DNA from: an uncultured bacterium
GTDB lineage: Bacteria > Omnitrophota > Omnitrophia > Omnitrophales > Aquincolibacteriaceae
NCBI GenBank assembly: GCA_964482725.1
Contig: CAYZYT010000007.1
Span: 19,875-83,874 of the forward strand
DNA length: 64,000 nt
Direction: 5' to 3'
The number at the start of each line of letters is the position of its first letter. The stretch's first letter is position 1. Shown here one piece after another: positions 3,617 to 61,300 of this stretch. The translations under genes and the position numbers were made by a program. The notes under the pieces are model-generated. The model was given only the letters and a program-made list of their open reading frames with translations. It had not been told where the DNA came from and ran no database searches.

Positions 3617-3985
3617 TTCCAATGCGGTGAGGCACGCTCGCGAGACGGAGCGGGCATGGTGGCTGACAGGAGTCGCCTCTCGACAACGGCTGTTCATCCG
3701 CTCCTGTCCCAATACCTATCAATTTTAACGAAGGTGAAATTGGGGCTGCCCTGATTACCTGTTGATTTATATTTGAGAATCAGGGCTGCAGCGGATGCCA
3801 GCCTGCGCTCTCGCTGATGGGACCTGCTCTTTTGAGCAGGACCAAGCTCCCATCAGCTCCGAGAGCTGTCTCGATGCGACTCCTGTCTGCCGAGTGAAGT
3901 CGAACGCGCGAGCGAAGATCGCCTCGCTGGGGCGATCTGAGCGATGACGAAACGCATTGGAATTGCCCATTGGCTGACCAGAGAT
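3617..3985. repeat. ~350-bp structured intergenic repeat, copy 1 (family A)
   Basis: Shares modules with 20328-20665: caatgcg..gag.acgctcgcgagacgga.cgggca.ggtgg; gctctc.ctgatgggacctgct...caggacc...tcccatcagctccgagagctgtctcga; tcccaatacctatcaattttaacgaag.tgaaaattggggc; gcgcgagcgaaga.cgcctcgctggggcgatctgagcgatgacga..cgcattgg; long imperfect hairpins. Confidence 0.7.
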
Positions 3986-4080
3986 GTATCCGCCACTAAA
4001 ACCGCGCTTGGAGTGTGGCGGGTTGTTTGCTAGACTGTCCCGTCTGCAATATTAACTTATCAATTTTCCCGGGAGATAAA

Positions 4081-29134: not shown

Positions 29135-29743
29135 ATGAAAAAATGGTTCCTGCTTTCTTATTGTCTTCTTCTTGCGGGATGCGCGTCGCAAGCTCCCCAA
29201 GTTGTCCCGGTTGCGACACCGGTTCCAGTGACGAACGTCGCTTCGACACCAACCCCTGAAACAGCAAAGGATGACACTATCGTGAAGATCAAGATCGAAA
29301 CCACGCTGGGAGATATTTACGCGGATCTGTATGAAGCGGAAGCGCCGAAGACGGTGGAGAATTTTGTGACGCTCGCAAAAAAAGGTTTTTATGACGGGAT
29401 CATTTTTCATCGCGTCATTCCGAATTTTATGATCCAGACCGGTGATCCGACAGGCACGGGCATGGGCGGGCCGGGGTATCAGTTTAAAGATGAGTTTTCA
29501 AGCAAGCTGCGTCATGACAAACCGGGCGTGCTTTCCATGGCGAATTCCGGGCCCAATACCAATGGCAGTCAGTTCTTTATCACGGAGGTTCCGACTCCTC
29601 ACCTCGATAACCGTCATTCGGTCTTCGGTCAGGTGACCGGAGGGATGGACGTGGTGCTCGCGATTGCCAACGCGCCTCGAGACCGACAGGACAAGCCGGT
29701 TACGAAGATCGCGATGAATAAAGTCGTCGTCCTTTCAAAATAA
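29135..29743 (+). CDS. peptidyl-prolyl cis-trans isomerase (cyclophilin type), lipoprotein
   Basis: Lipoprotein signal [16 protein letters not shown]; cyclophilin core [25 protein letters not shown]...[14 protein letters not shown]. Confidence 0.85.
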
Positions 29744-40397: not shown

Positions 40398-43300
40398 ATG
40401 AATTCAAGTAAGCCTATCAAGTCGTTCATTGCTGCGTTTACAGCCTTCACCTTTTTCTTCACCGGCCTGGGCATTTCACCCAACGCTTTTGCTTCGGGGG
40501 GTGCTTCTCTTGCCCCCGAAGTGTCTCTACCTTATCAGGTTAAGCTGGATCAAAATCTTCGTGTCACCATTCCTCAAGAATTAGGCAAACTCGAAAATTT
40601 TAAAATGGGCCAAGGGCCCGCCATCTTCCATATCCAGGACGCGCACGGTCATTACGAAGGCCAGCAGAAGATCCGCCAACTCCTTGGATTTCTGAGCAAG
40701 ACCTACGGGGTCAATACCGTGCTCGTGGAAGGAAGCGCTTTCCGGCTCAATTCCGAAAAGATCAACTTTTTCCCCAAAGATGTGAAGAAAACGCTTGCCG
40801 TGAATGAAGAGTTTACCCGTCGCGCGTGGGTTTCGGGGGCGGAGCTTTTTCTTTTAGACAGACTACAGACAAGAGACCAGAGACAAGAGACTAAAAATAA
40901 AAATTTAAAACCAGCTTTAGGTCTCCAGTCTCCAGTCTCCAGTCTCTGGTCTGGCGGCGAAGCCGCCGAGGCGCTCGGAATTGAGAATGCGGAGGCGTAT
41001 CGCTCAAACGGCCGGTCGTTCGTGAATGTCCTCACGGAAAAACAAAAGACGGAACAATTCCTCGCGGACATGAATATGCAGATCGAGCGTCTTGCGAGCC
41101 ACTCCCTTAATAAGGAGCTCCGCGACTTTCTCCGTCGGGTCGAAGGTTTCGAAAAGAATCAAGTCCCGCTTGATACCTGGCTTGCCAATCTGAAAACGGA
41201 AGCGGCGAAGAGCCTTGAGATCGATCTCGCGTCACCCGCTCACCAGCTTGATTGGCCGATGCTTGTGCGTATCTACAAGATCCAGGAGCTTTCTTCTAAG
41301 CTGGATCGAAAATCTTTCCCCAACGAGAGGGACGCATTCCTTAAAGCGATTCGGAGATTCCTACCTTCGAGGACTACAGACCCGAGACCCGAGACCCGAG
41401 ACCAAAACCAAGATAAAGTCTCCAGTCTCCAGTCTCCAGTCTCCAGTCAAATCGAAGCGTTGCTTCGTAACGATTCGATGAGTCAGCAGTTGCCGGATCC
41501 GGAGACAGGGTTGCTTTTTGAAGATATGGTCAAGCGCCTTCCGGAAAATTTCAATTATGAGGCGTTCCCGAACGTCCGAAATTTTATCGGAACACTCCTT
41601 CTTCGGAGCGAACTTAAAGCAGATCGCTTGATGAGGGAAGTCCAGAAGCTTTCGGAGACCCTCACCGCCAAATTGATCCGTAATAAGGAAGAACAAAAAC
41701 TCGTCGCGTTGCTCGCCGACCACCGACTGCTGCAGAAGCTCTTTGCGCTGGAGCTTACGCCGGCGGATTATGAAATAATCCGCGGGGAACGGCAAACGGG
41801 CAACGGTGAACGTGAAAACATAGAGCCGTCAGAAATCATTCGCCGATTTAGCGAATTCGTTCCCCGTTCCACGTTCCCCGTTTCCCGGGTGAAGTCCGTC
41901 CAATTCTCCCATGTTGCTGAATTGGATCATCTATTCGATGCAGCCATGAAGTTCTACTCCGGCGTCAAAGCCCGCGACGGAATGATGGAAACGAGAATCG
42001 AGGAACGCCTGAAAGAGACCGGCGCGACCAAGGTCGCCGTGATCACCGGCGGTTTCCACAGCCAGCCGATGCAGGATCACTTCATTAATAAAGGATATTC
42101 CTACGCGCTTATCACTCCCAAGCTCTCCGGGGCTGACGAAACGGGCCGCGACGGTTATCTCCAAGCCGCGCTTGCGAGCATTCTCCCGGCGCAAAACACG
42201 TACAAAAATCCCTTCATTTTTACGACGGCCAATCCTGCGGGTGACGGCGCGTCGCTCGCCGGCGTCAAAACGGCCGTGACGGATGTCCTGCAGAAACTAG
42301 TGGCTGGCGGTGCTCTTTCGAGTGCGGACGCCAGGGGCGTGACGCGTAAATTGGCGGGAAAAGCAGACCAGACCACAGACCAGAGACCACATACTGCAGC
42401 CAATGCTTTAAGTCTCCAGTCTCCAGTCTCCAGTCTCAAGTCCGACGTGGGCCGCTCCGAAGCGCGGATGGATCTTCGCGGCGATGCTGAAGAGATGCTG
42501 AAAAGTCTTAAGGTCAAGCCCGGCACGGACGGAGCTTCGGTGACATTTACTTTTGAAGGTGAGTTTCCGGACAAACCGAGCCCGATGTCCGTGACGTCGG
42601 CTGCGGAACTTTTTGATCTCTTTCAAAAGTTACAGGAATTCGGGATCCTGCCTTCTGATCCTGATGTGTTGATGCTCATCGGTCCCGGGGAAGTGGTGGA
42701 GGCGGAGGAGGGGCACACTATTACGATCAAGCCCGACCAGTGCATGGTGGTTTTTAAAGGAGGGACTGAGGCCACGGTCATCCAATGGCAGGATGCCTAT
42801 GGCATCAAGCAGGTCCTGCAAAAGATCATTTTGTGGTTGGGGGCTTCTTCTGGTCCCAAGGTCACTGTAAAACTTAGATCCGCCGCTGCCGCGCCGGCCA
42901 TTCCCGTCGCAGCACCCACCGTCGGAGCCAACAAACTTCAGCTCAAAAAAGAGGTTCCTTCGCTCAAGAACCTTTCGCCATTCAAAAATCTATTCGGAGG
43001 TCTGAAATCGCTCGGAGAAGCGCAGATCATTTCAGAAGCCCCCGTTGCAATTCGAGATGCCGCGAGGATTCTTGGGACTTTATCCCAGAAGTTTTCGTTC
43101 ACGGCTCTTGGGTTCGTCGAAGCTTCAGGGAATCTCGCCGATCCTTCCAAGGTTGCGTGGCTGCCGACCCTGGGGAATCCATCGGCAGGAGAATTGATGC
43201 AGAATCTGAGCGTTACTGCCTCCGGCGGGAACGCGGATGCTCTTTGTGACGTTGTCATCGCACCTTATAACGGAGAACGATTTGGTTCGCAATCCGGCAA

Positions 43301-46300
43301 CATGCTTTTTCTTCTCCCGCAGCGCTCCGAGGTCCGTCTGGAAAATGCCGGGCCGGTGAAGGATCTGGAGGCGATCAAAAAAGAGATCCGGTCAGCTTTG
43401 GAGGCAAATGATGCCGCCCACACGTTCAAACTTTTCGGGATCACGCTTCTCGCCGGGACTCACGTCGCGGATTTCGACGCGCGAGTGGCTCAAATGGATT
43501 CTTCGCATCTGGCCGCGTGGCTTGACGCTATTTTGCCGGTTCTTGAAAAGGTGGCGTCAAAGGTTGTGGTGCACGTTGGGTACGATGACCATGGCTCAGG
43601 GAACGCGGATGTAAAGCTTTGGATAGCTCTAATGAGTCTGAAAACCCAACTTAATAAAGCGAGGGCGGCCGAAGCGCCTCTGGCGCAAGGGACAAAAACC
43701 GCTCCAGCAGCTACCGCCGTACGCTCGGAAGCGCGGGCAAAGAAGGTTGGGGTTGTTGTTTCCGTGCGGATCGCGGTTGATCTTACGAAATATGACCGCA
43801 GAACCTTGGTCCGGGATGTTGCACTCCGGGAAATTGAAGAAAAAGTTGGCGCCAGGGCCGCGGATGATTATTTGTGGCGTGTGAGATTTTATTTCAACAA
43901 TGATGGCAGTAATGACGTTCGAGAGTTGAGGACTTTCGTTTCGTTGAACGCTTTGAAAGAATGGCTGAGACCATCAAGACGTACGAGATCAAATCTTACG
44001 ACGCTTGATATCGAAGGACTACCAAGCATCTATGCGCCTGCCGTCCGCTCTGAAGGGCGTGGGCCGCAGGAATGGATGCAAGAGGTCGACGCACTGACAG
44101 AACAGTTTTCTCAAAAATTTCAAGAGTCTCAGGCTTCCGGATCCGCGGAATTAGCGTCGCTGGAAGACCGGCTTGAGGATATCGAAAAAATTCAAGGGAG
44201 AATGAGAGTTCTTTCCCTGGTGATCCCGAGAGAGGTTGTGGCGATCGAGAGAAGAATGAAAGGCGAGCCTTCCAAAGAAGATTTCTCTGCGGGACTTGCG
44301 GCGCAGCGCCCATCGCTTCGCGATATGACTCGCGAAATGGAAGCGCTTTACGAAAAAGCGATTGCTCTCAACAGTGTCGAGACAGATTCCGTGAACCGGT
44401 TTCCGATCGCCCCTGTTTCCGTGGCCGGGCATTTCGTCTTCTTGGGTGGGCCCCTGGGGAGCTTGTATACGGCACTCAATAACGCCCGTGCGGAAGTGCG
44501 GACACAGGAAACCCATTACCGGAACACGACCGCGGAAGGGAAGATGCTCGAGATCGTTCAGAAAGCGGCGGGAAGTGAAATTCTTTTGGATGGAGCCAAT
44601 GTTGGGGATTGGAAACGGAATCCCGGCCTCAACGATGGCAACGACAGGATCGTTTTCGGGGACTTGCAGGTTGAAGATCATAATGTCACTGTTTTATTCG
44701 ATCCCTCAGCTATGGCGGAAGGCAAACAGCCTTGGCTTGTGTCTGTAGATGGGGATGACCACGCGGAAATGACGGCGCCGGTGGTGAATGCCGTTCAGGC
44801 TTTTATCAAACAGTCGATCGTGTCCGTGGAAACCTCTCAAGTCGCGGCTCCGGCCATCGAAAAAGAACAGCCGGTGGCGCCTGCCGTCGTGACCCCTGCG
44901 GTAGAAAAAATTGCAGCGGCTGTTTCTGCTGTGCCGGTGGCGCCGCGGGTTTCTGGGCGTATCAGTTTGCCGAAAGAAGTGAGACCTGTGGGCAGCCCGG
45001 TGGCGAGTATCAAGCTGGGCGCTGCGTTAAAACAATTTGAGGCCGAAAGCGCTGCTGCCGCAAATGATCCTAAAGCCGTAGAAACGCGGCGTCTTGCAGC
45101 GGAAGTTGCGGCAAAGGCAAAGAACGCGCAGATGCTAATCGGCAAAAGCGGCGGTGCTCAAAAACCGGCGCAAATACGCCGGGGCGGATTGATCGACAGA
45201 CTTCCCGGGTTGCCGGAGCGCGAACAGGCCCGGAATGTATGGCCGGCATTTGAAAATTTTTATACGAGACTTCTCGCCGAAGGTCAGGCGGAGGCATTAC
45301 TCAAGCTCCTGAAGGAAACGGAACAATATACGAAGACACGGACCCGCGCGACTTTTATCGCTGCGGGGATCGCGGCGGTTGTGATCTCGCTTTCGTGGCT
45401 TATCACGGGCGTCGGAGTGGTGACCATGATGGCGTCGTTTGTGTGCGGCGCCGGAGTTCTCGGAACGGTCTGGTTCTTCAATAATAATGTTCCCGATCTT
45501 TTGCGTTTGACCGGTAGTGGTGTGGTGGCGTTGGTGCCACTCTTCCAGAAGGCGGTTGACGACGTCAAAGCGAGGGAAGCCAAGCTCGCGGGCCGTGGGC
45601 CCCAGCCGGCAGCCAAGGGCACGGAAAAAGATGAAGAATCGGGTTCGTTCGGCAAACAGCTTTCAGATCTGGCCGCCCAGGCAACCGATGCGAAAGTTTG
45701 GGACAAAGGTGTGATCATCCCGAAACTTGCGGAAGTCATTGCCGGTGTTCCGGAGTTGACCGGTACGCAAATGCCGGTCCAAACGACGCTTGGGAAAACC
45801 CAGCCCGAAAAAACTCCGAATGGCATGATATCCAAGGGAACTCAAGGCCGTTCGGAGGTTAGGGCGAATACGGTTCCAGCCGCATCGGAAGAAGCCCTGC
45901 GGAATGAATTACAACAGATAGAAAGACAATTAGAACAGATCCAGGACCGGCAGGTTCAAGGGGAGGACGTCGGCTTGGCACGCGAAGATGTTCTCGCCCT
46001 TCAAGGACAGCGCGCAGCGATCCTGGAAAGTTTGGGGCTTACCACTCGTTCCGAAGTTCGGCTGTCGCCCGTTCAAGAACGGAAATTCCAGCAGGCGTTG
46101 CGGGATCTTCAGGCGAAGTGGTGGGACGGGAGCTTCAATGATCATGGCGCGGGACGCAAAATTGCTGCCGCCATCCTTCTTGGCGAGCTCAAAGATCCCC
46201 GGGCCGTTCCGGCATTGACGGAAGTTTTAACGGATGAATACGAAAAAGTACGTCGCGCCGCGGCCTCAGCGATCGAGTTGATCAATAATAATACTGAAGT

Positions 46301-49300
46301 GCTGAACAATGAACTCCGGAGGATCGAGCAGGCGCTGGGTCAGATCCAGGACCGGCAGGTTTTGGGTGAGGATATCGGCTGGGCACGAGAGGATGTTCTG
46401 GCGCTCGAAGGTCAGCGTGCCGTGATCCTAGAACAATTGGAACAGGCAAATCGTTCGGAAACGCGGAGAGGGCAAGAAGTTTTGCCCAAGATCGATCCTA
46501 CAAAAACGATCGCCTGGAGAGAACTCAAGGAACTCTCATCTCTGATGCAGAGGGAAGCAATATCCATGAGAGGTATGTTCGAGGCGGATCCGAATCGTTT
46601 CGATAAGTATTCCGTCCGGTTGGGCGATGATTTTCTTCTGGATTATTCGAAGAATCGGATCGACGGGCATGTTATGGCGGCGCTCATGAATCTTGCGGGG
46701 CAGACACGTTTGCAGGACGCGATCGAGTTGATGTTCACGGGCGCGAAGATCAACGAAACTGAAAACCGAGCGGTGCTCCATACCGCGCTCCGGGCTCCGG
46801 CAGATGCGGTGATCGAAGTGGACGGGATGAACGTTGTGCCGGACGTGCATCAAGTGCTTCAGCGGATGAAGAAATTCACGGACGATGTCCGTTCGGGCGA
46901 ATGGAAGAGTTACACCGGCAAGCGTATCAAGAATATCGTCAATATCGGAATCGGCGGTTCGGACCTCGGCCCGGTGATGGCCTACGAAGCGCTCAAGAGT
47001 TACAGCGACCGGGATCTGACGGTCCGTTTCATTTCAAACGTCGATGCCACGGACTTTGCGGAAAAGACCCGCGATCTCAAACCGGAAGAAACACTTTTCA
47101 TTATTGCCTCCAAGACGTTTACGACACAAGAGACCATGACGAATGCCGGAACGGCTAAGGCCTGGTTTCTGAAGAGCGGCGCGAAAGAGGAAGATGTCGC
47201 GAAGCATTTTGTGGCGGTTTCCACGGCAAAGGAGCTCGTCAAAAAATTCGGGATCGATACGGCGAATATGTTCGAGTTCTGGGACTGGGTCGGCGGTCGC
47301 TATTCCGTGTGGTCTGCGGTCGGTCTCCCGCTTATGTGCGCGATCGGTTATGAAAATTTCCGTGAGTTTCTGGACGGTGCTCATGAAATGGACCGTCATT
47401 TCCGGACCGCGCCTTTCAATCAAAATATTCCCGTGATCCTCGCGCTCCTCGGGATCTGGTACAACAATTTCTTTGGCGCCCAGTCGCAGGCGATCCTGCC
47501 TTACGATCAATACCTTAACCGTTTTGCGGCTTATTTCCAGCAGGGCGATATGGAGTCGAACGGAAAGAGTGCCGGCCGCGACGGCAAGCCCGTCACGCAT
47601 CAAACCGGTCCGATCCTTTGGGGCGAACCCGGGACGAACGGCCAGCACGCCTTCTATCAATTGATCCACCAGGGGACGAAATTGATCCCGGCCGACTTCA
47701 TCGGTTTCGCGAATTCCCTGAACCCGATCGGAGATCACCCCGAAAAACTCGCAGCCAATCTTTTTGCCCAGACCCAGGCGCTGGCGTTCGGTAAAACAGC
47801 TGACGAGGCGCGCGCGGATCTTGTTGCGGAAAATGTGAAAAAGAAAGCGAAGGGTGAAAAAGAATTAACTGCCGAAGAGATCGAAAGTCTCATTCCTTTC
47901 AAAGTATTCGAAGGCAATAAACCGACCAATACGATCCTTGTCAACCAACTGACGCCGCGGACGCTCGGGGTGCTTGTCGCGATGTATGAGCACAAGATCT
48001 TCGTGCAGGGCGTGATCTGGAATATCTACAGTTTTGATCAATGGGGGGTCGAACTTGGTAAAGCGCTGGCGAGCGGGATCCTGCCGCAGCTTGCTCCGAG
48101 CGCCGAAGTGAAAGGGCAAGATAGTTCAACCTCCGGGCTGATCGGTGTTTGGAAGAAAATGAGCGGTCGTTCTGAACTCCGTGGGATCATCGCTTTGCGT
48201 CATCGGCTGAAGAGCCTCGTGATGGTTTCTGCGGCGGCGGGGATGATGGGTTTTTCCGGATGCGCGACTCATAATGTCGGGACGCAGGCGCCCAGGTCCT
48301 ATCCGCCCGCCCCTAGTTATGATTATCGGCCCTTATATAAAAAGCCGATTTTGCCAAAGACCCAAGTTCCTAAATTTAATTTCAAACAGAATGCCAATCC
48401 GCCCGCTTTTCGGCCCCTAAGGCCCGTCGCCCCCATGCCGAAGATGCCCGCGGCGCGTTATCGTTCGGAGACGAGAGATTTAGAGCTGGAGAGACTTCTT
48501 GCAGCAAGAAAGGAAGTGCAGGATGTTGCGCGTGAGCAGCTTTCCAATCCCAAATTGATCGAAGCGCTGAAAAAACGAGCCGCACGGGAAGGAAAGGTTT
48601 TTCAGGTACCCTCCATGTCGCGCCGTTCTGAACTGCGAGGCAATGTTGAAACCCGGGATCCGGATCTTGAGAGATTGATCGCGGCAAGGAAGGCCGTGCA
48701 GGATACTGCGCGTGAGCAGCTTTCAAATCCAAAATTGATCGAAGCCTTGAAACAAAGAGCCCTTCGAAAAGGAATTGTTTTTTCGGAGCCTGTCTTTTCT
48801 GCAGTTCTGATCATCGGACTAGGGTTGGGCGCAGTCTCAGCGGCGCTCGCTCAGGCGAGTGTTACAAATGAAAACGCCGCCCTGACCCACCGGCCGAATT
48901 GGGCCGAATTCATGGCCACCTCGGATAGAAGTGATGTTGCGACGACGTTGGTGAAGTTTACCCGTGCCGGCGAAGAATGGGCTCGAAAACGCGGCAAGAC
49001 AGTGGACTATACGCCGGCATTTTTGGAAACGATGAAAGAAAAGATCAGAAAAGGGGAGATTCGCGACTCCCAGGAACTCTACAACCTGGTCATTCGCTGG
49101 GTCGAGCACAACGCCGTTCCCTCGGGCAAAGCCACTCGATCGACACGTACAGGTGCCGCAAGCAGCACGGAAGAGCGCAGCGAACTTCTCACTGCCCCTG
49201 AAAAAGGAACTGCAGAAAGTGCTGAGAGTGGCGGCGAAGCCAACACCGTGCGTGCCGAGATCCGGAATGTGGATGAATTTACGGGTAAGTTGCTCGAAGA

Positions 49301-52300
49301 GACCCAGCTTGGAGCAGAAATGCTTGCTTCCGAACTCAATGACGCGGTGTTGTTCGAGAACCTGGACACCGCTATTCAGCGCGCGATCGAACAAGTGCTC
49401 GGCGAAATGGATCAGAGCCCGGATCATGCCGCGGATTTTTACATAAGAGATCGCGATAATATTATTTCCAATCTCGAATCCCGCTCCGAGAATCGTCTGA
49501 TCGCAGGAGTGGCCGAGAAGGGAATGTCCTTTGAAGAGGTTCGCGAGGTTTCGCGCGCCCGCCGGAAAAAAGCGGCGTGGCAAGGAGGCATCCAATGGTG
49601 GCCGAAGGTCAGTGCCTTTCTGGGAGGCAATATTGCTTCCGCAGGGAATCTCGTTGCGCCATTGGCTGAAGAATCCGTCTATCAAGGTTCTTTGGACGTA
49701 CGTTCCGAGGCCCGTCTGTACAAAAAAGCCTGGGCCCATGTGACCGCGGTGACGTCTTCGGCCAAAGGGTTGAATCCGCTCTATGCGGTGATGACGGCGG
49801 CGGTGATCGGGGTTTCCGGATGTGCCAATTATCAAGGGGGGCTGTTGCACTCACTCCGGCATAATCCGCCGGCCAATATTCCCGATTATCGTAACCACTA
49901 TAGTCCTCCTCCCTATTATCGCGCTCCCTATGTTCCTAAGTCTCATTTTAAGCCGCCCGTTATTCCCATAAGACCGGTGCCCTCCGGGCCGAACCGTTCA
50001 GAGGTTCGAAAGTCTGTTGTTGGGAATAGCTCCAATCCGGTGGTTTCTCTCTGGGGCCTTGACACTTTTGACAGCCAACAGGGGTCGGTTCTGACCGCCA
50101 TTAATTCTGAATTTGTATTCCCGGGAGATTTCCAATTGCAAGCATCTCTTTTGGCGGATTATTCGGTGATTGAGGAGCTTCACCAGGGTTCCTTCAAGGC
50201 AGGGGATAAACAATATCATTTGGTGGTCGATGTCGGAGAGTCGATCGCAACTTTAAGACTTTCATTGGATGGAGAAATGAGGCTGACCGGCTGGAAATGG
50301 CTCAAAGATATCAGGTCCGAAGTTCAGGATTTGGCGCGTCACCCTTATGGGCTTTTAGCGGAAGTCAATGAAAGTCTGAGACGGCAGAATATCCCGGAGG
50401 TCAAACAGGAAACGACGCAAATTTACGGGCAGCAGCTCATCCATGGCGTCGAAAGCATCTTGGAAAAATTCCGTGGAAAACCCTTTACCGGCATTACCTA
50501 TCAACAAGTCGCCGGACGGTCGGAAGTGCGAACCGTAGGCTCCTCCGCGGAGGAATTGGACCGGGCGATCGATGCGGCCTACGTGAAAAAAAGACAGCTT
50601 GAATCGAAAGTCGGGGAAGCCAGGAGAAACTATGAGTCCTCGTACTGGCGGGAAACGGATGCCCGGCGCAGGGAAAATCTTCGCGATGGGGATCGGGATC
50701 TCGAGCAATTGAAAGATGAAACGGACAGCCTCCGTGTGACCCGCGACTCTCTGCAAAAAGAGCTGGAAACCGTCACGATCCAGATCCGGCGGTTGCTGGA
50801 CGAGAAGCATCCCGTGAAACGCTCGGAAGTGCGGGAAACGACGAAGCAGGCGCTGATCAGGGTCAATGCTGAAATGGAAGGGCTCGATCGATTGATCTCG
50901 GAGCTCACAAGAGCCCCGGAGTCGGCGGACAAGGACGAAAGGCTTGAAGCGCTGAACGCAAGTTATGACGAGCTTGAAGAAAAACGGCAGCACCTCGCGC
51001 GGCTAGGAGTGATCAAAAAAGCCTGGGCCCATGTGTCAGCCGTGACTTCTGCAGCCAAGGGACTCAATCCTCTCTACACGGTCGGGCTGGCAATTTTTGA
51101 ACAATGGTTATGGCATCCCCGAAGCCTCACGCTCGCTCAGGCAGCTCATGTCGAGCAAGCCGCATCGATGGAAGCGCGTTTGGATACCCTCCGGGCATTG
51201 GGCGCGAACCCGGGCCTGGGCTATCAGCGATTTGTTTATCATTTGATGCGCGCCGAGTTATCGCCTTCCGAGTGGCGCCGTTTTGACCGCGCTTTGATGT
51301 GGGAAGTTGATGCTGAGAAAAAGGTAGCGTCTGTACGTTCGGAACTGAGGGGTGGGAAAAACATTGCGGGAATGTTGAAACAAAAAGGCCTGGATGACAA
51401 CGAGATCCGTCTTTTGGCGGCGGCCGTTCTAGTCAGTGGGGGGAGAGGGAACCTCAGTCAGGCTGGGGTCATATTAAAGAATACGAATACTCTTCCGGAG
51501 GTGACTCCGGAGATGCTGGTGGCTTTCCAGACGCTCATGTCCCGTCCGGAAGATATGCGGGCGGTATGGCTGAAGCTTGATGACCAGCTCCGATTTTCAC
51601 ATGACATCGAGGCTCTTTATTTTCAAGACGAAAATCTCGGCGCTGCACACCGTTTAATGCATAAGGCACAGGTTCTTATCGATGTTTTTCGGGCCCTCCG
51701 CGGAGAGATTTCGTCCATGGGCAATCGTTCTGAAATCAGAGCCGAAGTTGATCCCGAGACGGCGGCGAAGATCGCGGATCGCTGGAAAAAGATCCGCTAC
51801 ATGGAAACGGACCCCGAGGGCGTGAAGCTCAAGGCCGAAGCCGAAGAAAAGGGCGAAGGTTTCCTGAATAACGCCCAGGCGACGATCCGTAAAGTGGCGG
51901 CTCAGATCAAGCTCGATCCGAAGATCCTTGAAAAGCTTTTGCAGTTCACCAAAGTCATTCGTGTCAAGATCCCGCTCACCCTCGATGAGGGCGGGGAGAC
52001 GCAATATATTGACGGATTTCGGATCGGCCACGCGCCCTATCGCGGGCCCTACAAAGGCGGCATCCGTTTTGCGATCGGCGTTGTGGAAAATATGATCAAG
52101 GCCCTCGCGACAGAAATGAGCGTCAAGAACGCTATTGCCGGGCTTCCTTACGGTGGCGGCAAAGGCGGCGTTGCGATCGATCCGAAGTATTTGTCGATCA
52201 AAGAACTTGCGCGTCTGACCCGCGGCTATGTGGAGCAATGCCTGAAGCAGGATCCGAACGCGTTCGGGGCGCTCCTGGATGTTCCGGCCGGAGATATCGG

Positions 52301-55300
52301 AACGACTTCCCGTGAGATGGGCTGGTTCGCAGATGAATTCCTGCGGATCAAGGGTTCGGATCTTTTTGATACGGATGGATACCGGGACTTCCTCGCAAAA
52401 GGGGATGAAAAGGGAAAGCCTTACGACGAAACCGGAATGCCGCGCCTTCAATTCTATATGAAGGAATACTACGGCAAACGGCATATCGACATGAGCGAAG
52501 GATCTCTCATCGCGACCGTGACGGCCAAACCCGAAGGAAAGGGCGGTGCTGTGGGGCGTACGCCGGCGACCGGCCTTGGTCTTTATTATGTGACGCGGGA
52601 TGCGCTGAAGATCTACGGGGATCGCCTCGGGATCGGTGCGAGTGTCGCGCAGCAAAGAATCGCCGTCGAAGCGTACGGGAATGTCGGAAGTTACGCCGCG
52701 CGGAGCTTTTTTGATAACGGCGCCAAGGTCATGGCGATCAAAGAATTTATCGGGAGGCCGGTTGCAGTTGTCGCCACAACGGATCGCGGTATGGATCTGA
52801 ACAAACTCGACAAGCATCTGGCCGAAAAGAACGCGGACGGCACATCGAAGAAGAACACGGTCCTGACTTATGTGGAAGCGCATCCTGAGGACGCGCGCCT
52901 GGCTACGATCGAGGGGTTCTGGTCAAGCGACGTTACGGTCCTCGCCCTTTGCGCCAAAGAGAAAACGGTCAATAAAGAGATCGCCGCGCTTATCAAGGCA
53001 AAGATCATTTCGGAAGGGGCCAACGGGCCGCTTGAGAACGACGGATCCGAACAGATCCTTCTGGATAAAGGCGCGATCATTCTTCCGGACGTTGCCACCA
53101 ACGACGGCGGCGTGGCATTCTCCTCCCTCGAGTGGCGGGCGAATAATATCGGCGAATCATGGCCGGAGGTCGCGGGGAACGGTCTGATGGAAGACAAAGT
53201 CGTAAGTGCCTTCTATGATATTTCCAGGGTCTCCGAATCCCAGAAGATCACGCTCCGTGAAGCGGCCTACCAGATCGCGATCAGCAAGATCGTGGACGCG
53301 ATGCTCGCGGCGGATCCCGAACTGGGGAATCTTTTTGATGAAACACATCCCGCTTATGTGATGGATGCCGGGGCGAAGCGCTGGCGGCCGGAGACCTGGC
53401 AGGAGCTTCGTCAGATCGATTCGCGGAAGGCGAAGGCCGCTCTGATCGATCGGGCCGACGAGGTCATGAATAAAAAGATCGATGAGATCGTTTCGGAAGC
53501 GCTCCGTGACCTTCCCTCAAAACGGGGCAGTGTGATCCTGATCGGCGGCCCGAGGGCTGCCGGGAAACCCATGCTGGGTGCGAACATGTTGGCGAAACTT
53601 CGTGCCCGGGGGCTCAAGGCCAGCATTCTTGATATGGATAATCAAAGGATGGATGATCTGACCAACGTTCTCCGGGGAAAGAAAGTTCCTGTTCTTCTCG
53701 AGGACGGGTCGCGGGACGGGGATCTCCAACTCGGCACAGATGAAATATTGATCGTGAATGGCTATTACGCTTTGGGCGACGAGATCCTCCGGAGGATCCA
53801 TGCCATCCAAGGAAAAGCATTCCCCCTCATTGCTTACAGCTCCCCGGACATTCTTCTTTCTAATAACTGGGCGCTGACGGCTTACGATGTCCGGCTGATG
53901 CGCGATACTCTGAGCGGCCTTGTGGTGGGGGAAGAAATGAGTGTCCAGGAAGTGATCCGCCGGTGGCAGCTCCAGCGCGTTTCGGAAACGGAAGCTGTCT
54001 TTGCGACCTGGAAGAACGCCAAGCGTGCGATCAACACCTATTTACCTTACGAATTACCTTTCCTGAAATCCCTGGTGGGGCCGCTCATCAAGATCGCGAT
54101 CGCCCAGGAATCCCGGGAACCCGGGGATGACGGGTATACGCTGAATGTCCTGCGTCATCTCGACAGCCTCTTGCGCAATGTCGAAGGCTGGGACGTTTCC
54201 CTGTTGGAAGGTCATCATGATTCCGTATTGTGGGAATACGTCCAGCGCTATGTACCGAATGGCACGACCGGGGTTCGTTCCGAATTGCGCGGCGGGGCCG
54301 ACCTGACCCGCGAAGCGAAGCTCGAGCAGTATTCCTGGAAGTTCCTCGGCCATGTTTGGGGCGTGACATTGTCGGGATTGGCTTTCGCGGCCGGAATATT
54401 TTACGCGGCCGAAGCTTTGGGATACCTCTCGGTGGCGGGACAAATTTTCTCCGAATTGTGGGCCGCTGGATGGGTTTTGGGTTATTCCATGATCATGGCC
54501 CTCGTCGGTGGGTTCGGCGTTTCTTATTTTATCCGGTTGTATCAAGAAACAAAATCCGGGGCGCTCGCGGAACTGGCACAGGAAAGACTTGCGGCGGATC
54601 TGGAAAGTGTGAAGGACCGGATTACGAAGGAACTTTCCCGCTATCCTTCGATCCCGCAGCGTTTCACAGCAGGATTTCAGGCTGTCCGTAATGACTTATC
54701 TCAAGCGGATCAGGTCATCAGCTATCTCGAAGCCTTGGTGGGGGATCTTACGACCTACGGAGAAAAACATCCTTCGGACGCAAAGGACGCCTGGGCCACC
54801 TGTGATGTCCTCGACAGGATCGCCGAAGAACTTTCTTTTTATCCGGATTCTTCGCGCTCGGAAATCCGGTCGAAGGAAGACTTTGCAGCCTTCGTAGATA
54901 AGTTTTTGAAACGTTCGGAAATCGTCAAAGAACTTGATGGTGTGGAACTTACGCTTCGTGCCATCAAAGAAATGGCGCAGGAAGCCATTCCGGACGACAA
55001 GATGACTCGTGTTGTGAGCGATGTGATGCTCCGGGCGGCAAAACAGGATGGATTGAAGCAGCCGCTTATTCATAAGGGTTTGAAAAATGCCTATCCCAGG
55101 AACTCCCAGCGCGGAAAACGGGTCATGGCAGAGACCCTTGCCGAAGCCTTTTCGGTCGCTCTTTCAGGCAATGATCCGTACGATGTCCGGGAAGCTCTGA
55201 CGGTTTTCCGGCGGGCGCTCACGGCCTATTCGAAGGAAACGGGCAGTTTTTCAAGTGGACAACAAGAAGCGGCAAAGACCTTGGCTGCGCAGCTGGGGAT

Positions 55301-58300
55301 CAAGTGGGACCGGATCCGAAGCCATGGGCTTTTGGCTTTTGATATGCAGAAAACACTTGTCGAGCGCAAAGAGATCCTGACCGATGGGTTGAGGGATGGT
55401 CTTATATGGTTGCTCTCGGAAGGGGTTCCTGTCGTAGTCATTTCGGCCAATTCGCGCGAAGAGATCTGGCAACAACTTATGGAGCCGATTCTCAAAGAAC
55501 TCCGCGCCCGGAATAAACTCTCTGTCATCGAAAATATGCTTGTCTATGCCAATAGCGGGACGTCGAAGTACTGGGTCGACAGTATGGGCGAGCGGCACTT
55601 GGATGTTGGGTTCAGTAAACAGTTCATGATCGGGCAAGAGGTCGAGCGGGCGATTCAGGAGGGGCTTAAAGATCTAGCCGTGAGGGGATTTTTTATCCCC
55701 CCAGCGGAGTGGCCTGCTTTCCGGGATCTTTATGAGAGGGATAAAGTTAAAGATGGCCTGGAAACGGAATTTCAGTTCCCCTGGATGGGAAAAAATATTT
55801 CACGAAGTGCTTATGAACCTTCCATCGTCCAGCGTTTAAAAAATGAAAAGATCGTCCAGGCCCCTTATATCATCCGCCGTGGACTTTTGGAAGGGGACGG
55901 GGATCAGCGCGGGACCGCGCTTGCGATCCGGCAGTTCTTGCCCGGCCAGCGGGAAAAAGCATGGCATTCCTTGGAGGAATTGTTACCGGCACGTTTGGGC
56001 GCTTTGGCGTCACAGTTCGCACTGCGCGGGGGAGGGGTATCGACGATCGATCTCTCCAATAAAAACGCGAATAAGGCCATGGCTTTTCGCGATGCCGTTG
56101 GATTTTTTCAGAAAAAGGGTCGCCGGGTGGACTTCCATGATGTTGTCTACCACGGGGATGAGGTTTGGAGGGGTTCCGAGGGAACCGCGGCGAAGAACCG
56201 CGGGAACGACATGATCATGCTCGAAAATGATTTTGACGGAGATCCGGGATACAAAAAATTTCAAGTGGTAGCTTTTAATCCGAATCCTCCCGAGGGGCTT
56301 TCTGCCGAGTACCAGACCCGCACCTCCTACATCGGGGGGGAGCAGCGCGGTGTGGAACTTTATCTTGGGTTGCTGAAGCAATCGGTTGAAAACCTCCGCG
56401 AGAGGAGCGGCGAAGCGGTTCCCGTACGCTCCGAGGTAAGGGGATTTGTGGCGCTCGCGGAAAATGCGCTCAAGAAGCGTTGGATCAGTGAAGCGGCTCT
56501 TGCCAATATCCGTTCATGGTCCGGGCCGGAATATGCCCGTGTGCATGGCCAGTTGGATGAAGAATTAAAAGCGGCGGGACAGGATCCGAAGGCTTGGTCG
56601 AAGATAAACGACGCGTGGTACACGAAGGTTGCGGTTGGTACGGCCGGAATGCGCGGAACCCTGGGGCTTGGGACGAACCGGATCAGTGAATACACCCTCG
56701 GTTCGCTTATGATGGCCCATGCGCTTTCCGTGAACGATCCCGCTTATACGCAGATCATTGAAGAAAATTATCCGGAGTTTCGTGCGAAGGATCTCCATCG
56801 CGCGGTCGTGATCGGCGGGGATTCTCGCTATGGTTCCTATGATGCTCAAACGAAAAAACCGGGCCGCCACATCAAACTCGAAGCGCTTATCAATGTGGCG
56901 TTGGGTATCAAAGCCTATGTGTTCAAGAGTCCCGCCTCTACGCCCCAGTTGGCATGGGCCGTTCATGAACTCGACGTTGAGCCCACGGACCTGCTTGTTT
57001 CGGGCTCCATGAATACTGCCAGCCATAATCCGCTTACCGATAACGGGAATAAACCCTACAAGATCGACGGGTCGCAGTCTACCGGGGTATTTTCGGAGCT
57101 TATGGCGAAAAACCTTTCGAATGCCGGCGTTACCGCTCTGAATGCCCTCACCTATGATGGCTTGAGCGTTCTGGAGAATGTGGACGAGGCTTTTGCGCGC
57201 GCCGTGGCCAAGGGCGATATCCGCTGGGTCGGCGGGACGGACGATGATTCCTATGCGAAGGATGCGTACCATGCGGATGAGCTCTTCGTTCAGCGCGAGC
57301 TTCAGGAAGCTATCCATACGATCAACGGGATTTTTGATAACGCAAAGATCGATCTTGGAAATTCCAGGATCGTGATTTCGCCGCTTTTTGGCGTGTCACG
57401 GCACATCCTGAAAAAGATCATTAAAGCTCGCGGCCTGAGCGAAGACCAGATTGTTTGGGTCGAGGATGAACCCAATCCCGATTTCCCAGGAGTGAAAGGC
57501 GGCAAGCCGAATCCCGAGGAACCGAAGGCGCGCCTGGCCGCTCTCCGCAAAGCCGTAGAAGTGAATGCCGACCTTGTGCTTTGGACCGATCCGGACGCCG
57601 ATCGTCCCGCGGTCGCTGCCAAGAAAGATCTGACAAAGAAAGCTGTTTCGACTGACGATTACGTTTCATTTAACGGCAACCAGCAGCTGGCGATCCTGAT
57701 CGATTATCTTGTCCGCGAGCTGAAGTCGCTTGCGGCGGGGCACTCCCTGGCCGATGACGAAACGCGGACTCATCTGGCGCGCCAGGCCGCCGTGATCATG
57801 TCCAATATAGGGAAAACGTTCGCAGCATTCAGTCTTGTTTCGGCCGACCTTCCGAAGATGATCGCGCGAAATGCCGGGATGGAAGTCGTGGGAACACTGG
57901 TCGGCTTCAAATATATCGGCGACCAGATCGAGCTTCGTTCCAAAATGATCCAGAAGCTTGCCGGGATCACCGAGACCGAGTGGCAGGGTCTGAGCAATTC
58001 ACGGAAGCTCGAATTGGGACTTCAGTATTCCCAGGCCTTTATCTTCGGCGGTGAGGAGTCGCTTGGCGCTCTTTCAAGCGACGGGCCGCATGACAAGGAT
58101 GCGCTCGCGGGAGTGATGTGGTTTGTTGAGATCATGGGCCGTCTCCGGAAGGACGGACTTACGTTGAATGATCGCCTGACGGAAATTTATAAGACGTACA
58201 GCTATTTCTCCGAGCGCTTTCCGATGCTCGAAAAAGGCAAGACTTATGCCGGGGTTGATCTTAGCGAAGACGAGGCCACTCAGGTCATTAAGGCCGAGAA

Positions 58301-61300
58301 GGGCCCGAGTATCATGAATTTCTTTCGTGCGACGCCGCCCCGTGCCATCGCGGGCAAGAAAGTCATTGCGATCCTCGATATGCTGGCTCAGACCGCAAAG
58401 GATGTAGACGGGAATCTTCTCTTTGATGCGGATCATCCAGGCGGTTTAGTGACGCCTCAAACAGCCGGGATACCGGAATCATTTCGGAGTGCATTGTCCC
58501 AGATCCAAGTACCGGCGACGATTCATCCGGCAAACAAACATCTTTTGCGGGGGATCTATTCTTTCCGGCACAAGCCGGTTCCGGGTTCGTCGGGTGCAGG
58601 GGAAGCGCTTCCCAGGGAAGCTTTCATCCGCCTACTGCTTGAGGACGGCTCGATCGTGACGCCGCGGCCTTCCGGGACGGAGCCGAAGCTGAAATTTTAT
58701 ATTCTGGGGCGCGGTCTTTATGAAAATAAAGCTGCGGTGGATGCCTGGGTCGAAGCCGCGTCAAAAGAGCTCGATGCGATCGGCGACGGGGTCGCCAAGC
58801 AGCGTTTTCCTGAAAGATTTACGGCGCGGGCAGAAACGAGCTCAACCCTGAGCCTGAAACGCTCAGGACTTCGCGGGAAATTCGACGCACTCATGGAGAT
58901 GAATATTTCGTCGCTTGACGATACGCGGGATCCCACCATGAAGCAACTTTGGAATGCCGTGCGGAAAGCCATGAATCGGGATGAAAGTGTCCGGCGGAAT
59001 ATTGCGGATGCGAACACGGCTAACGATAGCGTCAGTGCCGCCAAGGCAACGGAGCAGATCTCTCGGGCCATGGACATGGCCTTGGACGCGCAGAAGGCGG
59101 CAGCGGTTCAGGAAGGAAAACGCGTTTTCGGGGATAGGAGCACTGTTGCGAGTATGGCCGCAGTGGTAGCGATCGCACCTTTTGTGATGTCGCCGGTTCT
59201 TGCCGTGATGGTCGAGATCTTGGGAATTTACTCTTTGGTGGACTTGCTCTCGACCGGTTCCCTCAGGTGGAAGCGGAAAGGGTTAAGCTTGAACGATGTC
59301 GAATACTATAAACCTTTGATCCGGCTCGCGTTCGAACGGACGGAGAGCCAGATCATCGCTGAAGCTACGGAGAAGGCTGCGCGTAGCGAGATTCGGGACG
59401 GCGCTGCGGAACCGGCGAAAACCACCGTTTCTTCTGAACCGGCCGTCCAACCTGCTGAAAAAGTGGTAGCGCCGGTGGTCGAAAAAACTCCGGAAGAGAA
59501 GAAGCCCGCGGTTGTTGCGGCGCCTGTTGCGGCGAGCGAACAAAATGCTGTTTCAGGCAATTTACCCTACCTCGTAGCCGCAATCACCGGATTGACTATC
59601 CTTGGGGCGCTTGCCGCCGTCGCCTTGTATGCACTTGAAGGCGAATCGACCCATGACAAGTTCGTGAAGATTTCTGTGGCGGTAGTTTGTGCGTTGGTCG
59701 GTGCAGGTGGGATTTTTGCGGTGCTATTCGGGGTTGCTTCCTTGGATTTTATGAGGAGCTCTCGTGGAAATTCTTCTAGGAGTCCGCTCGAGCTTGCAGA
59801 GAGTGAATCCCTACGATTGATCAAGAAAGTGGAATCCAAGATCCGGCCTGAACAAAATCGGCTTGAGGCTATCACAAAGCATGCGATGACAGAAGCGGCC
59901 GCCGCAGGAGATAAAAAGAAGCAGCCGGTCGTGGAATCGAGCGAAACGCTGCAGTTGCGTGCCAAGGTTGAGGCCCAGGAAGAAGTAGCAAGACAGATGA
60001 GGTCAATCGCAGAGGAATACAAACAGTTTGAAATTTTGAGCTCGCGGGCCGTCAAAAAGCAGCAGCCTCAGATCGATGCTGTGACTCAGAAGATCCGGGC
60101 GCTCTATGAGCCGTGGGCTGCCGAAGAGGCCAAGAAGGTGAGTGCCGCTGCTGCCAAGCGATCCGAAATCCGTCAAACCTCTTCATCGGATCCGGAAGCG
60201 ATCCAGGCCTTGGTTGAAAGGATCGGGGATCTTGAAAGCCGTTATGAAAAACTGAAAAGCCAGAGCGGGCATGCGGCCCAGCGCGAAGTCCGTCGAGTTA
60301 AAAGAGAGCTGGATCAGGCGAGGGCAAGTCTTGAACGGACGGAATCATCCGTTGGTCGCTCCGAGGTTCGCCAGGATGATGAAAAAGAGCTTCGGGAACT
60401 GCGTTCCCGATGGGATGAGCTTATGCAGAGCAAGGTGCATACCTGGAGAGTTGCGGCAGAGCTTAGTCAGGTCCAGGCAAAGATCTCCGCGATCCTGGAT
60501 TCTCAAAAGGCCAAAGTCAAGCAGGTCATCGATCTTGAGATCGTTCCGGAGTTGATGAAAAGAATCTCGGACATGGAAATGGCGGTTCGAAAACAAAGGC
60601 TGGATGAATCGACGACGCTTGAAGTGATAAGTCTCTTGGGGACACGGGTCGAAAGGGTCTATGCGGCGATAGCTCCCGTGGCCGTTTCCCGTGGTTTGGA
60701 TCCCTTGGGCATGTTGCGGTTCTTTTATGGGATGGCCCCGACCCACGAAGATCCGAATAAGAAATTCATGGATATTTACAAGGCGTTTTTTATGGGAGAT
60801 CGAGAAAAGATCAATGCTCTGAGCTTTCAAATCGTCGGCTTACCCATCAGGGATATGGATACAGCCCGTGAGATTTTTGGAGAGAAATTCTCGCCGTGGA
60901 TCGCTGCCTTGCTCGAGTTGCCCAAGGACATTTTTGAGCGCAAGTTCGTTCAACAGACGAGTGAAGGATCTAAGGAGCTCGACGGCCGGATCGTCGCCCT
61001 GGCAAATTTTCTGCAGCACATGACCGCCTTTTATCAGGGGAGCCACCGGGAGGCGCTTCTTGCGGAAGCTGGGATGCTTTTGACCGCATGGGACGGCTGG
61101 GCCAATCCCTCCAGGGTCATTCCCGTGGCGCCTCAGACACTTCAGGTTGGGGGGCTTCAGGTCATCCAACATTCCTATTACAGATCGCCGGGCGTTACCA
61201 TAGACAACAAGCCGGTCTCTCAGGCAAATAAGCGGGCGGAGATTCGCGCAGAAGTGCTCGCCGCAACCACTTCTCTTCCGTTGAGCCGTGAAGTTGTGGT

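Follow-up and report, generated by a model that had tools for sequence, protein, structure and literature searches.

The stretch of DNA analysed here, called the window in the following, comprises 64,000 nucleotides from an uncultured bacterium of the phylum Omnitrophota (assembly GCA_964482725.1, contig CAYZYT010000007.1, positions 19,875 to 83,874 of the forward strand). It contains a giant open reading frame (ORF) of 7,591 codons, which is punctuated by the recurring pentapeptide R[SA]ExR and which carries, directly behind two of these pentapeptides, segments that resemble the signal peptides of bacterial lipoproteins. The giant ORF is preceded by a SUF iron-sulfur operon and by further housekeeping genes. 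As to the host lineage, relatives of residues 1-685 were found only in metagenome-assembled genomes of Candidatus Omnitrophota and in metagenome contigs. Pfam and NCBIfam models recognised a full-length glucose-6-phosphate isomerase (PGI; residues 2032-2588), a glutamate dehydrogenase (GDH) with a nucleoside-kinase-like part (residues ~3823-4620), a phosphoglucomutase/phosphomannomutase (PGM; residues ~5463-6105) and HEAT repeats; the unannotated modules gave no match in searches of Pfam and of PDB sequences. The protein contains only 10 Cys residues, four of them within hydrophobic stretches, and next to the two lipoprotein-like segments it has at least eight further hydrophobic segments. By its genome, its length, its signal and transmembrane (TM) segments and its embedded enzymes the ORF is a member of the multi-enzyme giant ORFs described for Omnitrophota, although its 7.6 kaa (thousand amino acids) lie below the length thresholds of the published giant-ORF papers (at least 10 kaa or at least 30 kaa). 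Its overall organisation is as follows:

40398-63173, forward strand: giant ORF, 7,591 codons, with consecutive modules separated by R[SA]ExR (ORF call and translation)
40398-42452, forward strand: conserved head module, residues 1-685, with a Sec-type signal at residues 1-33 (..SPNAFA|SG); it heads every ORF of the family
42453-61706, forward strand: span of the 24 RSExR motifs of 15 nt each (motif scan)
42453, 43323, 43722, 44046, 45849, 46047, 46452, 48168, 48462, 48624, 49482 and 49701, forward strand: starts of RSExR motifs 1 to 12
49995, 50517, 50820, 51336, 51726, 54276, 54855, 56427, 59382, 60159, 60357 and 61692, forward strand: starts of RSExR motifs 13 to 24
Residues 1364, 2952, 6946 and 7261, forward strand: four RAExR variants, giving a total of 28 R[SA]ExR sites
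46452-48167, forward strand: module m07, a complete PGI (model positions 4-542 of 544), which opens with RSETR and ends with ..KKMSG abutting RSELR

The pentapeptide is strongly enriched in the frame of the giant ORF, where RSExR occurs 24 times compared to 0.17 occurrences expected from composition, with 1-5 occurrences in each of the other five frames and none in the other genes of the window. The codons used for the R, S, E and R positions differ among the sites, and since these codons vary synonymously the motif is selected at the peptide level, which rules out a nucleotide-level signal as its basis. We also considered the motif as an N-terminal tag of ordinary genes, which was rejected: a match at position 166 of the window lies out of frame and is terminated by a stop, and none of the ORFs in the loci starts with the motif. 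None of the 28 R[SA]ExR sites lies within a Pfam or NCBIfam domain, even though these domains cover ~23% of the ORF (estimated P ~7e-4), and the PGI domain is separated by only 8 amino acids from the preceding and by 2 amino acids from the following motif. As expected for a polyprotein, a short motif thus recurs at the junctions of complete units and outside of folded domains. The module at 51726-54275 combines GDH with a nucleoside/uridine-kinase-like domain, has no motif in between, and may represent a true fusion protein.

The same punctuation was found in the relatives, i.e., in five genome loci and 77 metagenome loci, all of them headed by the N-terminal module. In the non-redundant related ORFs R[SA]ExR occurs ~354 times in ~157,000 amino acids, corresponding to ~1 per 450 amino acids, compared to 60 occurrences in 314,000 amino acids in all other ORFs of at least 150 amino acids in these loci. 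The junctions follow a consensus with V/S/G/A at position -1, L/A/M at -3, V/A/I/L/T/M at the variable position x and S/A/G/T at +1. In the relatives the motif flanks Pfam domains and interrupts none. As an example, in locus L004 a Glucosamine_iso domain (residues 3512-3751) is bracketed by motifs at 3496 and 3782 and a 2-Hacid_dh domain (residues 2582-2880) by motifs at 2499 and 2902, and domains of L011 are flanked in a similar way. Module content and order vary greatly among the relatives, and blocks of homology start and stop at the motifs, which shows that evolution has acted on the modules as units, with the motif delimiting them. The conservation of a junction motif despite differing content and order of the modules is a further feature shared with polyproteins.

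The motif also occurs in what could be called dialects of individual lineages: only RAExR is used in L033 (16 sites) and L028 (11 sites), and RHEMR, RGEMR and RQEMR are found in the more distant members L039 and L006/P0005, with RGEMR in P0005 (L006) being immediately followed by a signal-like segment, LSKRWQWGGIIVGGLTLFAVGFYWGA. Moreover, paired junctions of the type RSEAR-SSLRTES(T/A)TGAV-RAE(V/L)R, with a conserved spacer of 12 residues, were observed in L004 (residues 1796-1817, 1934-1955 and 3782-3803) and also in P0001 and P0011; they resemble a spacer peptide between two processing sites. In L038, an in-frame stop at 11548-11550 follows a head module of 596 amino acids, after which the ORF continues in frame, with RSELR at a distance of 22 residues; a true gene split, a sequencing error or readthrough could each account for this. 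Two ORFs with this head module are present on each of the single contigs Ga0172379_10000848 (L045/L069) and Ga0080064_1000003 (L029, L035), so one genome can hold several motif-punctuated ORFs.

Two modules of the giant ORF, m08 and m12, in the following called A and B, open with a segment of the lipoprotein-signal type:

48159-48161, forward strand: in-frame ATG (Met2588), three codons before the motif, with GGAAG at 48151-48155
48168-48182, forward strand: RSELR motif opening module A (m08, 48168-48461)
48183-48260, forward strand: signal-like segment A, with an n-region of charge +3 and an uncharged h/c-region of 16 residues (sequence and hydropathy)
48252-48263, forward strand: lipobox A, F-S-G-C2622 (Cys codon 48261-48263; Cys scan)
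48264-48461, forward strand: tail of module A, 66 amino acids, Pro/Tyr/Lys-rich, up to the next motif
48462-48476, forward strand: RSETR motif closing module A
48615-48638, forward strand: M-S-R-RSELR junction with ATG at 48615
48789-48869, forward strand: ordinary hydrophobic segment of TM length, residues 2798-2824, 27 uncharged amino acids, between modules A and B (hydropathy)
49701-49715, forward strand: RSEAR motif opening module B (m12, 49701-49994)
49716-49820, forward strand: signal-like segment B, with an n-region of 17 amino acids and an uncharged stretch of 18 residues (sequence and hydropathy)
49812-49823, forward strand: lipobox B, V-S-G-C3142 (Cys codon 49821-49823; Cys scan)
49824-49994, forward strand: tail of module B, 57 amino acids, Pro/Tyr-rich, up to the next motif
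49995-50009, forward strand: RSEVR motif closing module B
51717-51740, forward strand: M-G-N-RSEIR junction before the GDH/kinase-like module, with ATG at 51717
29135-29743, forward strand: native stand-alone lipoprotein gene of the same organism, with a lipoprotein signal typical for the host

The original prediction, made from the letters of the window and with coordinates that were one to five bases off, had described these elements largely as they are found here. Segment A has the in-frame Met, the basic n-region, the hydrophobic h-region, the FSGC lipobox and the Pro/Tyr-rich linker ascribed to it, its RSELR starting at 48168 instead of 48167, and it directly follows PGI, which ends with ..KKMSG right before this motif. 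Similarly, the second segment with its Pro/Tyr-rich linker is present behind an RSEAR at 49701 (predicted at 49702), and the M-S-R-RSELR and M-G-N-RSEIR junctions are real, with their ATGs at 48615 and 51717 and not at 48610 and 51715.

Both modules are 98 amino acids long from motif to motif, and Cys2622 and Cys3142 are the only two of the ten Cys residues of the ORF that stand in a lipobox context. The uncharged stretch before the Cys comprises 16 amino acids in A and 18 in B, compared to 23-49 amino acids in the other membrane-type segments of the ORF. The n-regions are basic, with K/R within the first seven residues counted from the residue after the motif (for B: LYKKAWAH), and both segments match a pattern of the PROSITE PS51257 type, {DERK}(6)-[LIVMFWSTAG](2)-[LIVMFYSTAGCQ]-[AGS]-C, the F at -3 of lipobox A being outside of the narrow [LVI] consensus. 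Measured against the PROSITE rule that places the Cys at position 15-35, the outcome depends on the bond that is cut: with Gly2596 as first residue the Cys of A is at position 27, with Met2588 at 35, and the Cys of B is at position 36 from Leu3107, i.e., one beyond the rule, or 41 from Arg3102. Lipoprotein signals are located at the N-terminus, whereas the two segments begin at residues 2588/2596 and 3107 of 7,591, and a cut of the chain at the motif would be needed to give them an N-terminal location. A part of the n-region of module B (49721-49789) belongs to a repeat, D5, with the sequence KKAWAHV(T/S)AVTS(S/A)AKGLNPLY, which occurs again at 51014-51082 (residue 3540) in a context that has no lipobox. 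The native lipoprotein encoded at 29135 shows a G-C-A junction followed by a Pro-rich linker, as do the lipobox modules, and its presence suggests, judged from the gene sequence, that the host has a lipoprotein pathway.

Modules A and B are paralogues (BLASTP E 8e-7; 72% nucleotide identity between 48235-48281 and 49795-49841). Their lipoboxes therefore represent one evolutionary event that was kept after duplication and not two independent ones. A third copy of the module was found in L012/L013, which have a head module 59% identical to that of the window; this copy has a canonical L-A-G-C lipobox and an equal P/Y-rich tail ending with ..PxGP(N/H)-RSE(V/I)R-K. The lipobox Cys is kept in all three module copies (window A, window B and L012), in a family in which Cys makes up 0.07% of the residues: in the window ORF and L001-L084 together we counted 108 Cys in 156,789 residues, with many stretches of ~3,900 amino acids containing 0-2 Cys. 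The copy in L012/L013 surfaced via the family loci; searches with residues 2585-3205 or with the lipoprotein-like module alone gave no homologue in an index of 5.8 billion proteins, in a HMMER scan of 1.84 billion representatives or in a first scan of metagenome contigs.

Export signals of several types also follow the motif in the relatives. Lipoprotein-type signals occur in L025, which reads RAEVR-SSWIKLVFAAILCGAG-C, and in L081, where RSEIR is followed over 41 residues by ..VMWLFIAGASALFSA-C (FSA-C) and then by a Pro/Thr linker and Ig-like domains. In the family as a whole four of six lipobox-type Cys residues lie at most 45 amino acids behind a canonical motif, compared to 0.8 expected (P = 0.005). 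Signal-like segments were identified by a predefined rule, which demanded a K/R and then an uncharged, apolar-rich stretch of 10 or more residues no further than 28 amino acids from the motif; they stand behind 14 of 306 sites, with 5.5 expected under circular shifts (P = 0.0016). Both Sec-like and twin-arginine signals are among these segments. Sec-like signals follow the motif in L064 (..NASA|F), L021 (..SFA|ED) and L011. Twin-arginine (Tat) signals stand 7-13 amino acids behind the motif. At residue 2,437 of L034 the sequence reads RSETR-EARGLDV-TRRDVLK-AGALGVLTAAAQA, placing a Tat signal 7 amino acids past the motif, and this is followed by a MdoG/OpgD periplasmic-glucan domain that starts at HMM position 3 (E 1.3e-8, above the Pfam cutoff); the signal itself scores 15.4 bits on the TIGR01409 TAT_signal model, the cutoff of which is 16.7. 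Further Tat-like signals are found in L062 (..FSRRRLLAASAFAFAAAWG) and in L039, where RHEMR and 13 amino acids precede SRRQMLAYGLTAAAVGAGLA. Tat export needs an N-terminal signal on a folded protein, and MdoD/OpgD of E. coli is a Tat substrate, reportedly a Tat-dependent periplasmic paralogue of MdoG. It is difficult to see why a complete periplasmic protein, encoded ~2,400 residues inside an ORF, should be headed by a Tat signal 7 amino acids past the motif if the module is not released with a free N-terminus. Units bearing predicted Tat, Sec and lipoprotein signals that would work only in the separated product are thus another feature that the family appears to have in common with polyproteins.

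Taken together, we favor the interpretation, at a probability of roughly 55%, that the giant ORF is a polyprotein-like string of modules in which R[SA]ExR marks processing sites and in which lipoprotein precursors are embedded. The original prediction had offered cleavage at the motif, exposing functional signal peptides, as one of two explanations; it is the one best supported by the relatives with their conserved motif, domain flanks and excess of export signals, whereas the cleavage itself is what we infer from these. Judged from the sequence, cleavage of the giant product at the motif is probable, since it comprises units with export signals that normally function only at the free start of a protein. 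The ORF would be translated as, or cut while it is translated into, autonomous proteins, with R[SA]ExR as the recognition site of a protease. The cut would probably occur just after the second Arg, as the residues at +1 are mostly S, A, G and T, which are stabilising N-termini according to the bacterial N-degron rule, whereas a cut before the first Arg would leave an N-terminal Arg everywhere. The upstream cut would make the signals of m08 and m12 N-terminal, and the two modules could then be exported by Sec, lipidated by Lgt at Cys2622 (m08) or Cys3142 (m12) and processed by signal peptidase II, yielding Pro/Tyr-rich lipopeptides of ~60 residues, for which a role as extended periplasmic tether is one guess. 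Modules without a signal, such as PGI, GDH-kinase and PGM, would stay in the cytosol. Membrane topology points in the same direction: between PGI and GDH one or three crossings are possible (residues 2606-2621, 2798-2824 and 3124-3141), and since after an odd number of crossings a single chain would have PGI on one side of the membrane and GDH/PGM on the other, this would support their separation.

Several observations weigh against this interpretation. If the window is left out, the association of lipobox-type Cys with the motif drops to two of four (P = 0.07). The n-region of segment B is long and composite, with the Cys at position 36. Hydrophobic segments in general show no significant shift to module starts (KS P = 0.15), no enrichment behind the motif was seen for strongly hydrophobic TM-like segments, and the enrichment of moderately hydrophobic segments is parameter-dependent (28-33 observed compared to 15-19 expected in two of ten settings) and could in part reflect the first core element of folded domains. 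Lgt and LspA are not encoded in the 64-kb window, and the mature products would have only 58-67 amino acids if every motif is cut. Moreover, in the collections searched the lipoprotein-like segment has no homologues beyond L012/L013.

The giant ORF could alternatively encode an intact, single-chain membrane protein, in which the segments are ordinary membrane-spanning or membrane-associated helices with a Cys at their end, and in which R[SA]ExR stays uncleaved and serves as a linker or for interaction between domains. This would agree with the published view of the Omnitrophota giants as multi-pass, membrane-anchored proteins, with the at least eight other hydrophobic segments of the ORF and with the failure of TM-strength segments to cluster behind the motif, and Cys is evidently tolerated in hydrophobic stretches here (four of ten). 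We nevertheless consider it unlikely: uncharged stretches of 16-18 amino acids are short for a TM helix, the lipobox Cys is present in three copies within a nearly Cys-free family, the mid-chain Tat signals before a complete MdoG/OpgD domain would have no known role, the chain would carry PGI and GDH/PGM on different sides of the membrane, and the modules are complete enzymes joined by almost no linker. Another alternative is that the internal signals are used in the uncut chain, with the h-regions inserting in N-in/C-out orientation and Lgt and signal peptidase II (or SPase I at Sec-type sites) cutting at the lipobox, the motif being no more than a flexible, charged n-region or junction element, comparable to the flavivirus polyproteins that are cut by host signal peptidase. 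It needs no protease beyond the known ones, the motif supplies two Arg residues just upstream of the h-region in the manner of an n-region, and signal-peptidase-II content was reported for a giant Omnitrophota protein (Nielsen & Lui 2026, bioRxiv 10.64898/2026.06.07.730766). About 95% of the motif sites are followed by no hydrophobic segment, and the motif is equally conserved there, e.g., at PGI/HEAT; together with the dependence of Tat export on an N-terminal signal of a folded protein and with the paired motifs and 12-amino-acid spacers of L004, which look like excision sites, this makes the explanation rather improbable.

The second explanation of the original prediction was that genes of the type M-x-x-RSExR encoding lipoproteins were merged by loss of stop codons, so that the segments would be relics of fusion or sites of internal initiation with signals that are dead or used internally. 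We regard this as very improbable, even though three junctions do read M-x-x-RSE[LI]R and a possible start codon at -3 is present at 10 of 69 sites compared to 4.3 expected. This excess is mostly due to TTG, i.e., Leu, the preferred residue at this position, and Met at -3 is found at 3 of the 28 sites of the window ORF and at 0 of 41 in the relatives. The three Met junctions (48159-48176, 48615-48632 and 51717-51734) have identical codons, ATG-N6-CGTTCTGAA (CGT-TCT-GAA), although TCT encodes the Ser at only 4 of 24 motif sites (estimated P ~0.002 for the association). This identity could be read in favor of common gene starts, but it suggests that the junctions were derived from one another by duplication or transfer of the junction sequence rather than from three ancestral starts. 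The GGAAG 3 nt from the ATG at 48159 is present as predicted, but would make a poor ribosome-binding site and is not a core Shine-Dalgarno (SD) sequence: real genes of the window use GGAG/GAGG at a spacing of 6-8 nt, and a core SD tetramer precedes 16 of the 158 in-frame ATGs, the ATG at 48159 not being among them. Internal initiation was therefore dismissed for lack of a proper SD and of a conserved Met at -3, and an internally started product would in any case extend to the end of the ORF. Furthermore, none of the 78 non-redundant sources (the window and 77 fetched loci) has an ORF that begins with the motif, the other genes of the window are free of it, relatives encoding the segments as separate genes, which the original prediction had proposed to look for, did not turn up as stand-alone homologues in the collections searched, and the lipobox was kept after duplication and between genomes, arguing against decay.

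If the chain is cut at R[SA]ExR, a protease is needed. The domain searches gave no confidently recognised protease domain in the giant ORF, including none of the C39 or S8 peptidase type, and among the upstream neighbours there are only the SUF and housekeeping genes. The head module is a candidate only. Its putative alpha/beta fold may resemble that of the Tiki/TraB/EreA/ChaN superfamily, and H-x-Q-x-A-H-G, E-G and G-G-F-H motifs are conserved in the family alignments. These motifs would be the likeness to the superfamily of Tiki, TraB, PrgY, EreA, ChaN, HopBA1 and RRSP, which includes the proteases Tiki and RRSP as well as erythromycin esterases; the head module differs by an extra helical domain of ~400 amino acids. 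It had no match in Pfam or among PDB sequences, and Foldseek against the PDB returned nothing significant. Moreover, the head module follows a Sec-type signal, by which it would be separated by the membrane from the Tat or cytosolic precursors that it would have to cut. A wider generalisation, to which we give somewhat less than even odds, is that virus-like polyproteins account for a part of the ordinary proteome of Omnitrophota, comprising enzymes of central metabolism as well as precursors of lipoproteins and of Tat and Sec substrates. A dedicated protease, for which the head module is a possible candidate, would cut them at R-[S/A]-E-x-R, with export signals becoming active only after processing. 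In a more remote variant the motif may act on the ribosome like a 2A peptide, without any protease.

Within the head module of the window three in-frame elements of ~100 nt were observed at 40859-40953, 41366-41456 and 42365-42436. They consist of heptamer repeats, (GAGACNN)x4-5, pairing with (NNGTCTC)x4-5 and thereby form long interrupted hairpins, with minimum free energies of -48.7 and -38.1 kcal/mol (z ~-6.3) for two of them and a weaker third element. All three are translated and coincide with low-pLDDT loops of the predicted structure. The same type of element is present in P0011 and P0014; P0001 has none at these positions and carries instead a different palindromic insert (..GVRSTA..TPYAFRRT..) three times. 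The elements look like mobile palindromic elements inserted in frame, in analogy to the Rickettsia palindromic elements. Duplications were also found further downstream in the giant ORF, where pairs of coiled-coil modules (45936-46055 and 46341-46460; 48468-48602 and 48648-48782) each end at or start after a motif. Within the pair beginning at 48468, the old motif of the second copy was apparently degraded to N-V-E-T-R, with a new MSRRSELRG upstream of it.

Giant ORFs count as a hallmark of the Omnitrophota, and giant proteins of the phylum have been described before, comprising 'Archaeovorin' and other types, and their cleavage was suspected based on C39/S8 peptidase domains, with the cleavage points stated to be unknown (West-Roberts et al. 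2023, bioRxiv 10.1101/2023.11.21.568195). Giant ORFs were also covered by Seymour et al. 2023 (PMC10066038), and 'multi-enzyme metabolic clusters' were described by Nielsen & Lui 2026. The motif provides concrete candidates for cleavage sites and thereby addresses the question of whether the giants act as a whole or are cut. If the interpretation is true, the giants could be divided in silico, and structure and function could be predicted for the individual units. It may further explain why PGI-like enzymes are apparently missing from many Omnitrophota genomes, as they would be hidden in giant ORFs, and predictions of extracellular glycolytic enzymes would need to be revised. This would be the first cellular organism with polyprotein processing on this scale, i.e., a gene organisation and a mode of maturation not known from any cellular organism.

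The published Omnitrophota giants and the ORF of the window are alike in the very long ORF, the N-terminal signal, several hydrophobic segments, embedded PGI and PGM/PMM, and a mosaic of poorly conserved content. They differ in location, the published ones lying after a secretion-system locus and this ORF after the SUF operon, and no junction motif was named for them, nor have R[SA]ExR, the head module or embedded lipoprotein, Tat or Sec precursors been described. In line with this, the literature on Omnitrophota giants yielded no report of a junction pentapeptide, of the head module or of embedded precursors behind a motif, and a literature search for RSExR/RSEVR strings returned only noise, with no relevant paper joining Omnitroph* with polyprotein.

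Compared to bacterial lipoprotein precursors, the lipobox modules share the basic n-region, the short h-region, a G-C-A lipobox and a small mature part with a Pro-rich linker after the Cys. The bacterial lipobox reads L-[AS]-[GA]-C, and Braun's lipoprotein Lpp is an example of a small lipoprotein with ~58 amino acids. The modules differ in that their signals lie 2,590 and 3,100 residues inside an ORF and in that the tail is Pro/Tyr-rich and not a coiled coil; no homology to Lpp or to another family was found. Similarly, the L034 module, which belongs to a relative and not to the window, shares with the OpgD/MdoD Tat substrates the T-R-R-x-V-L-K signal, the Ala-rich h-region and a MdoG-family domain from its first positions, but it is located at residue 2,437 of a giant ORF, right after RSETR. 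Long precursors with recurring short cleavage motifs exist in other bacteria: the Porphyromonas gingipains RgpA/Kgp are cut after Arg/Lys and adhesins of Mycoplasma hyopneumoniae at S/T-X-F|X-D/E, the cuts in the gingipains being Arg-directed. These are secreted precursors of adhesins or proteases and give rise to few related fragments, unlike a string of unrelated cytosolic enzymes and export precursors.

In viral polyproteins, such as those processed by 3C/NIa in picornaviruses and potyviruses or those of flaviviruses and pestiviruses, one ORF likewise encodes many proteins, with short junction peptides and small flanking residues comparable to those seen here, and in flaviviruses internal signal sequences send parts of the chain across the membrane. 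The giant ORF differs in being a gene of a cellular chromosome that encodes housekeeping enzymes and in employing signals for the bacterial Sec, Tat and lipoprotein routes instead of translocation into the endoplasmic reticulum. By analogy in working principle, the viral polyprotein with internal signal sequences is the closest known counterpart of the giant ORF, which itself is not a member of any such family.

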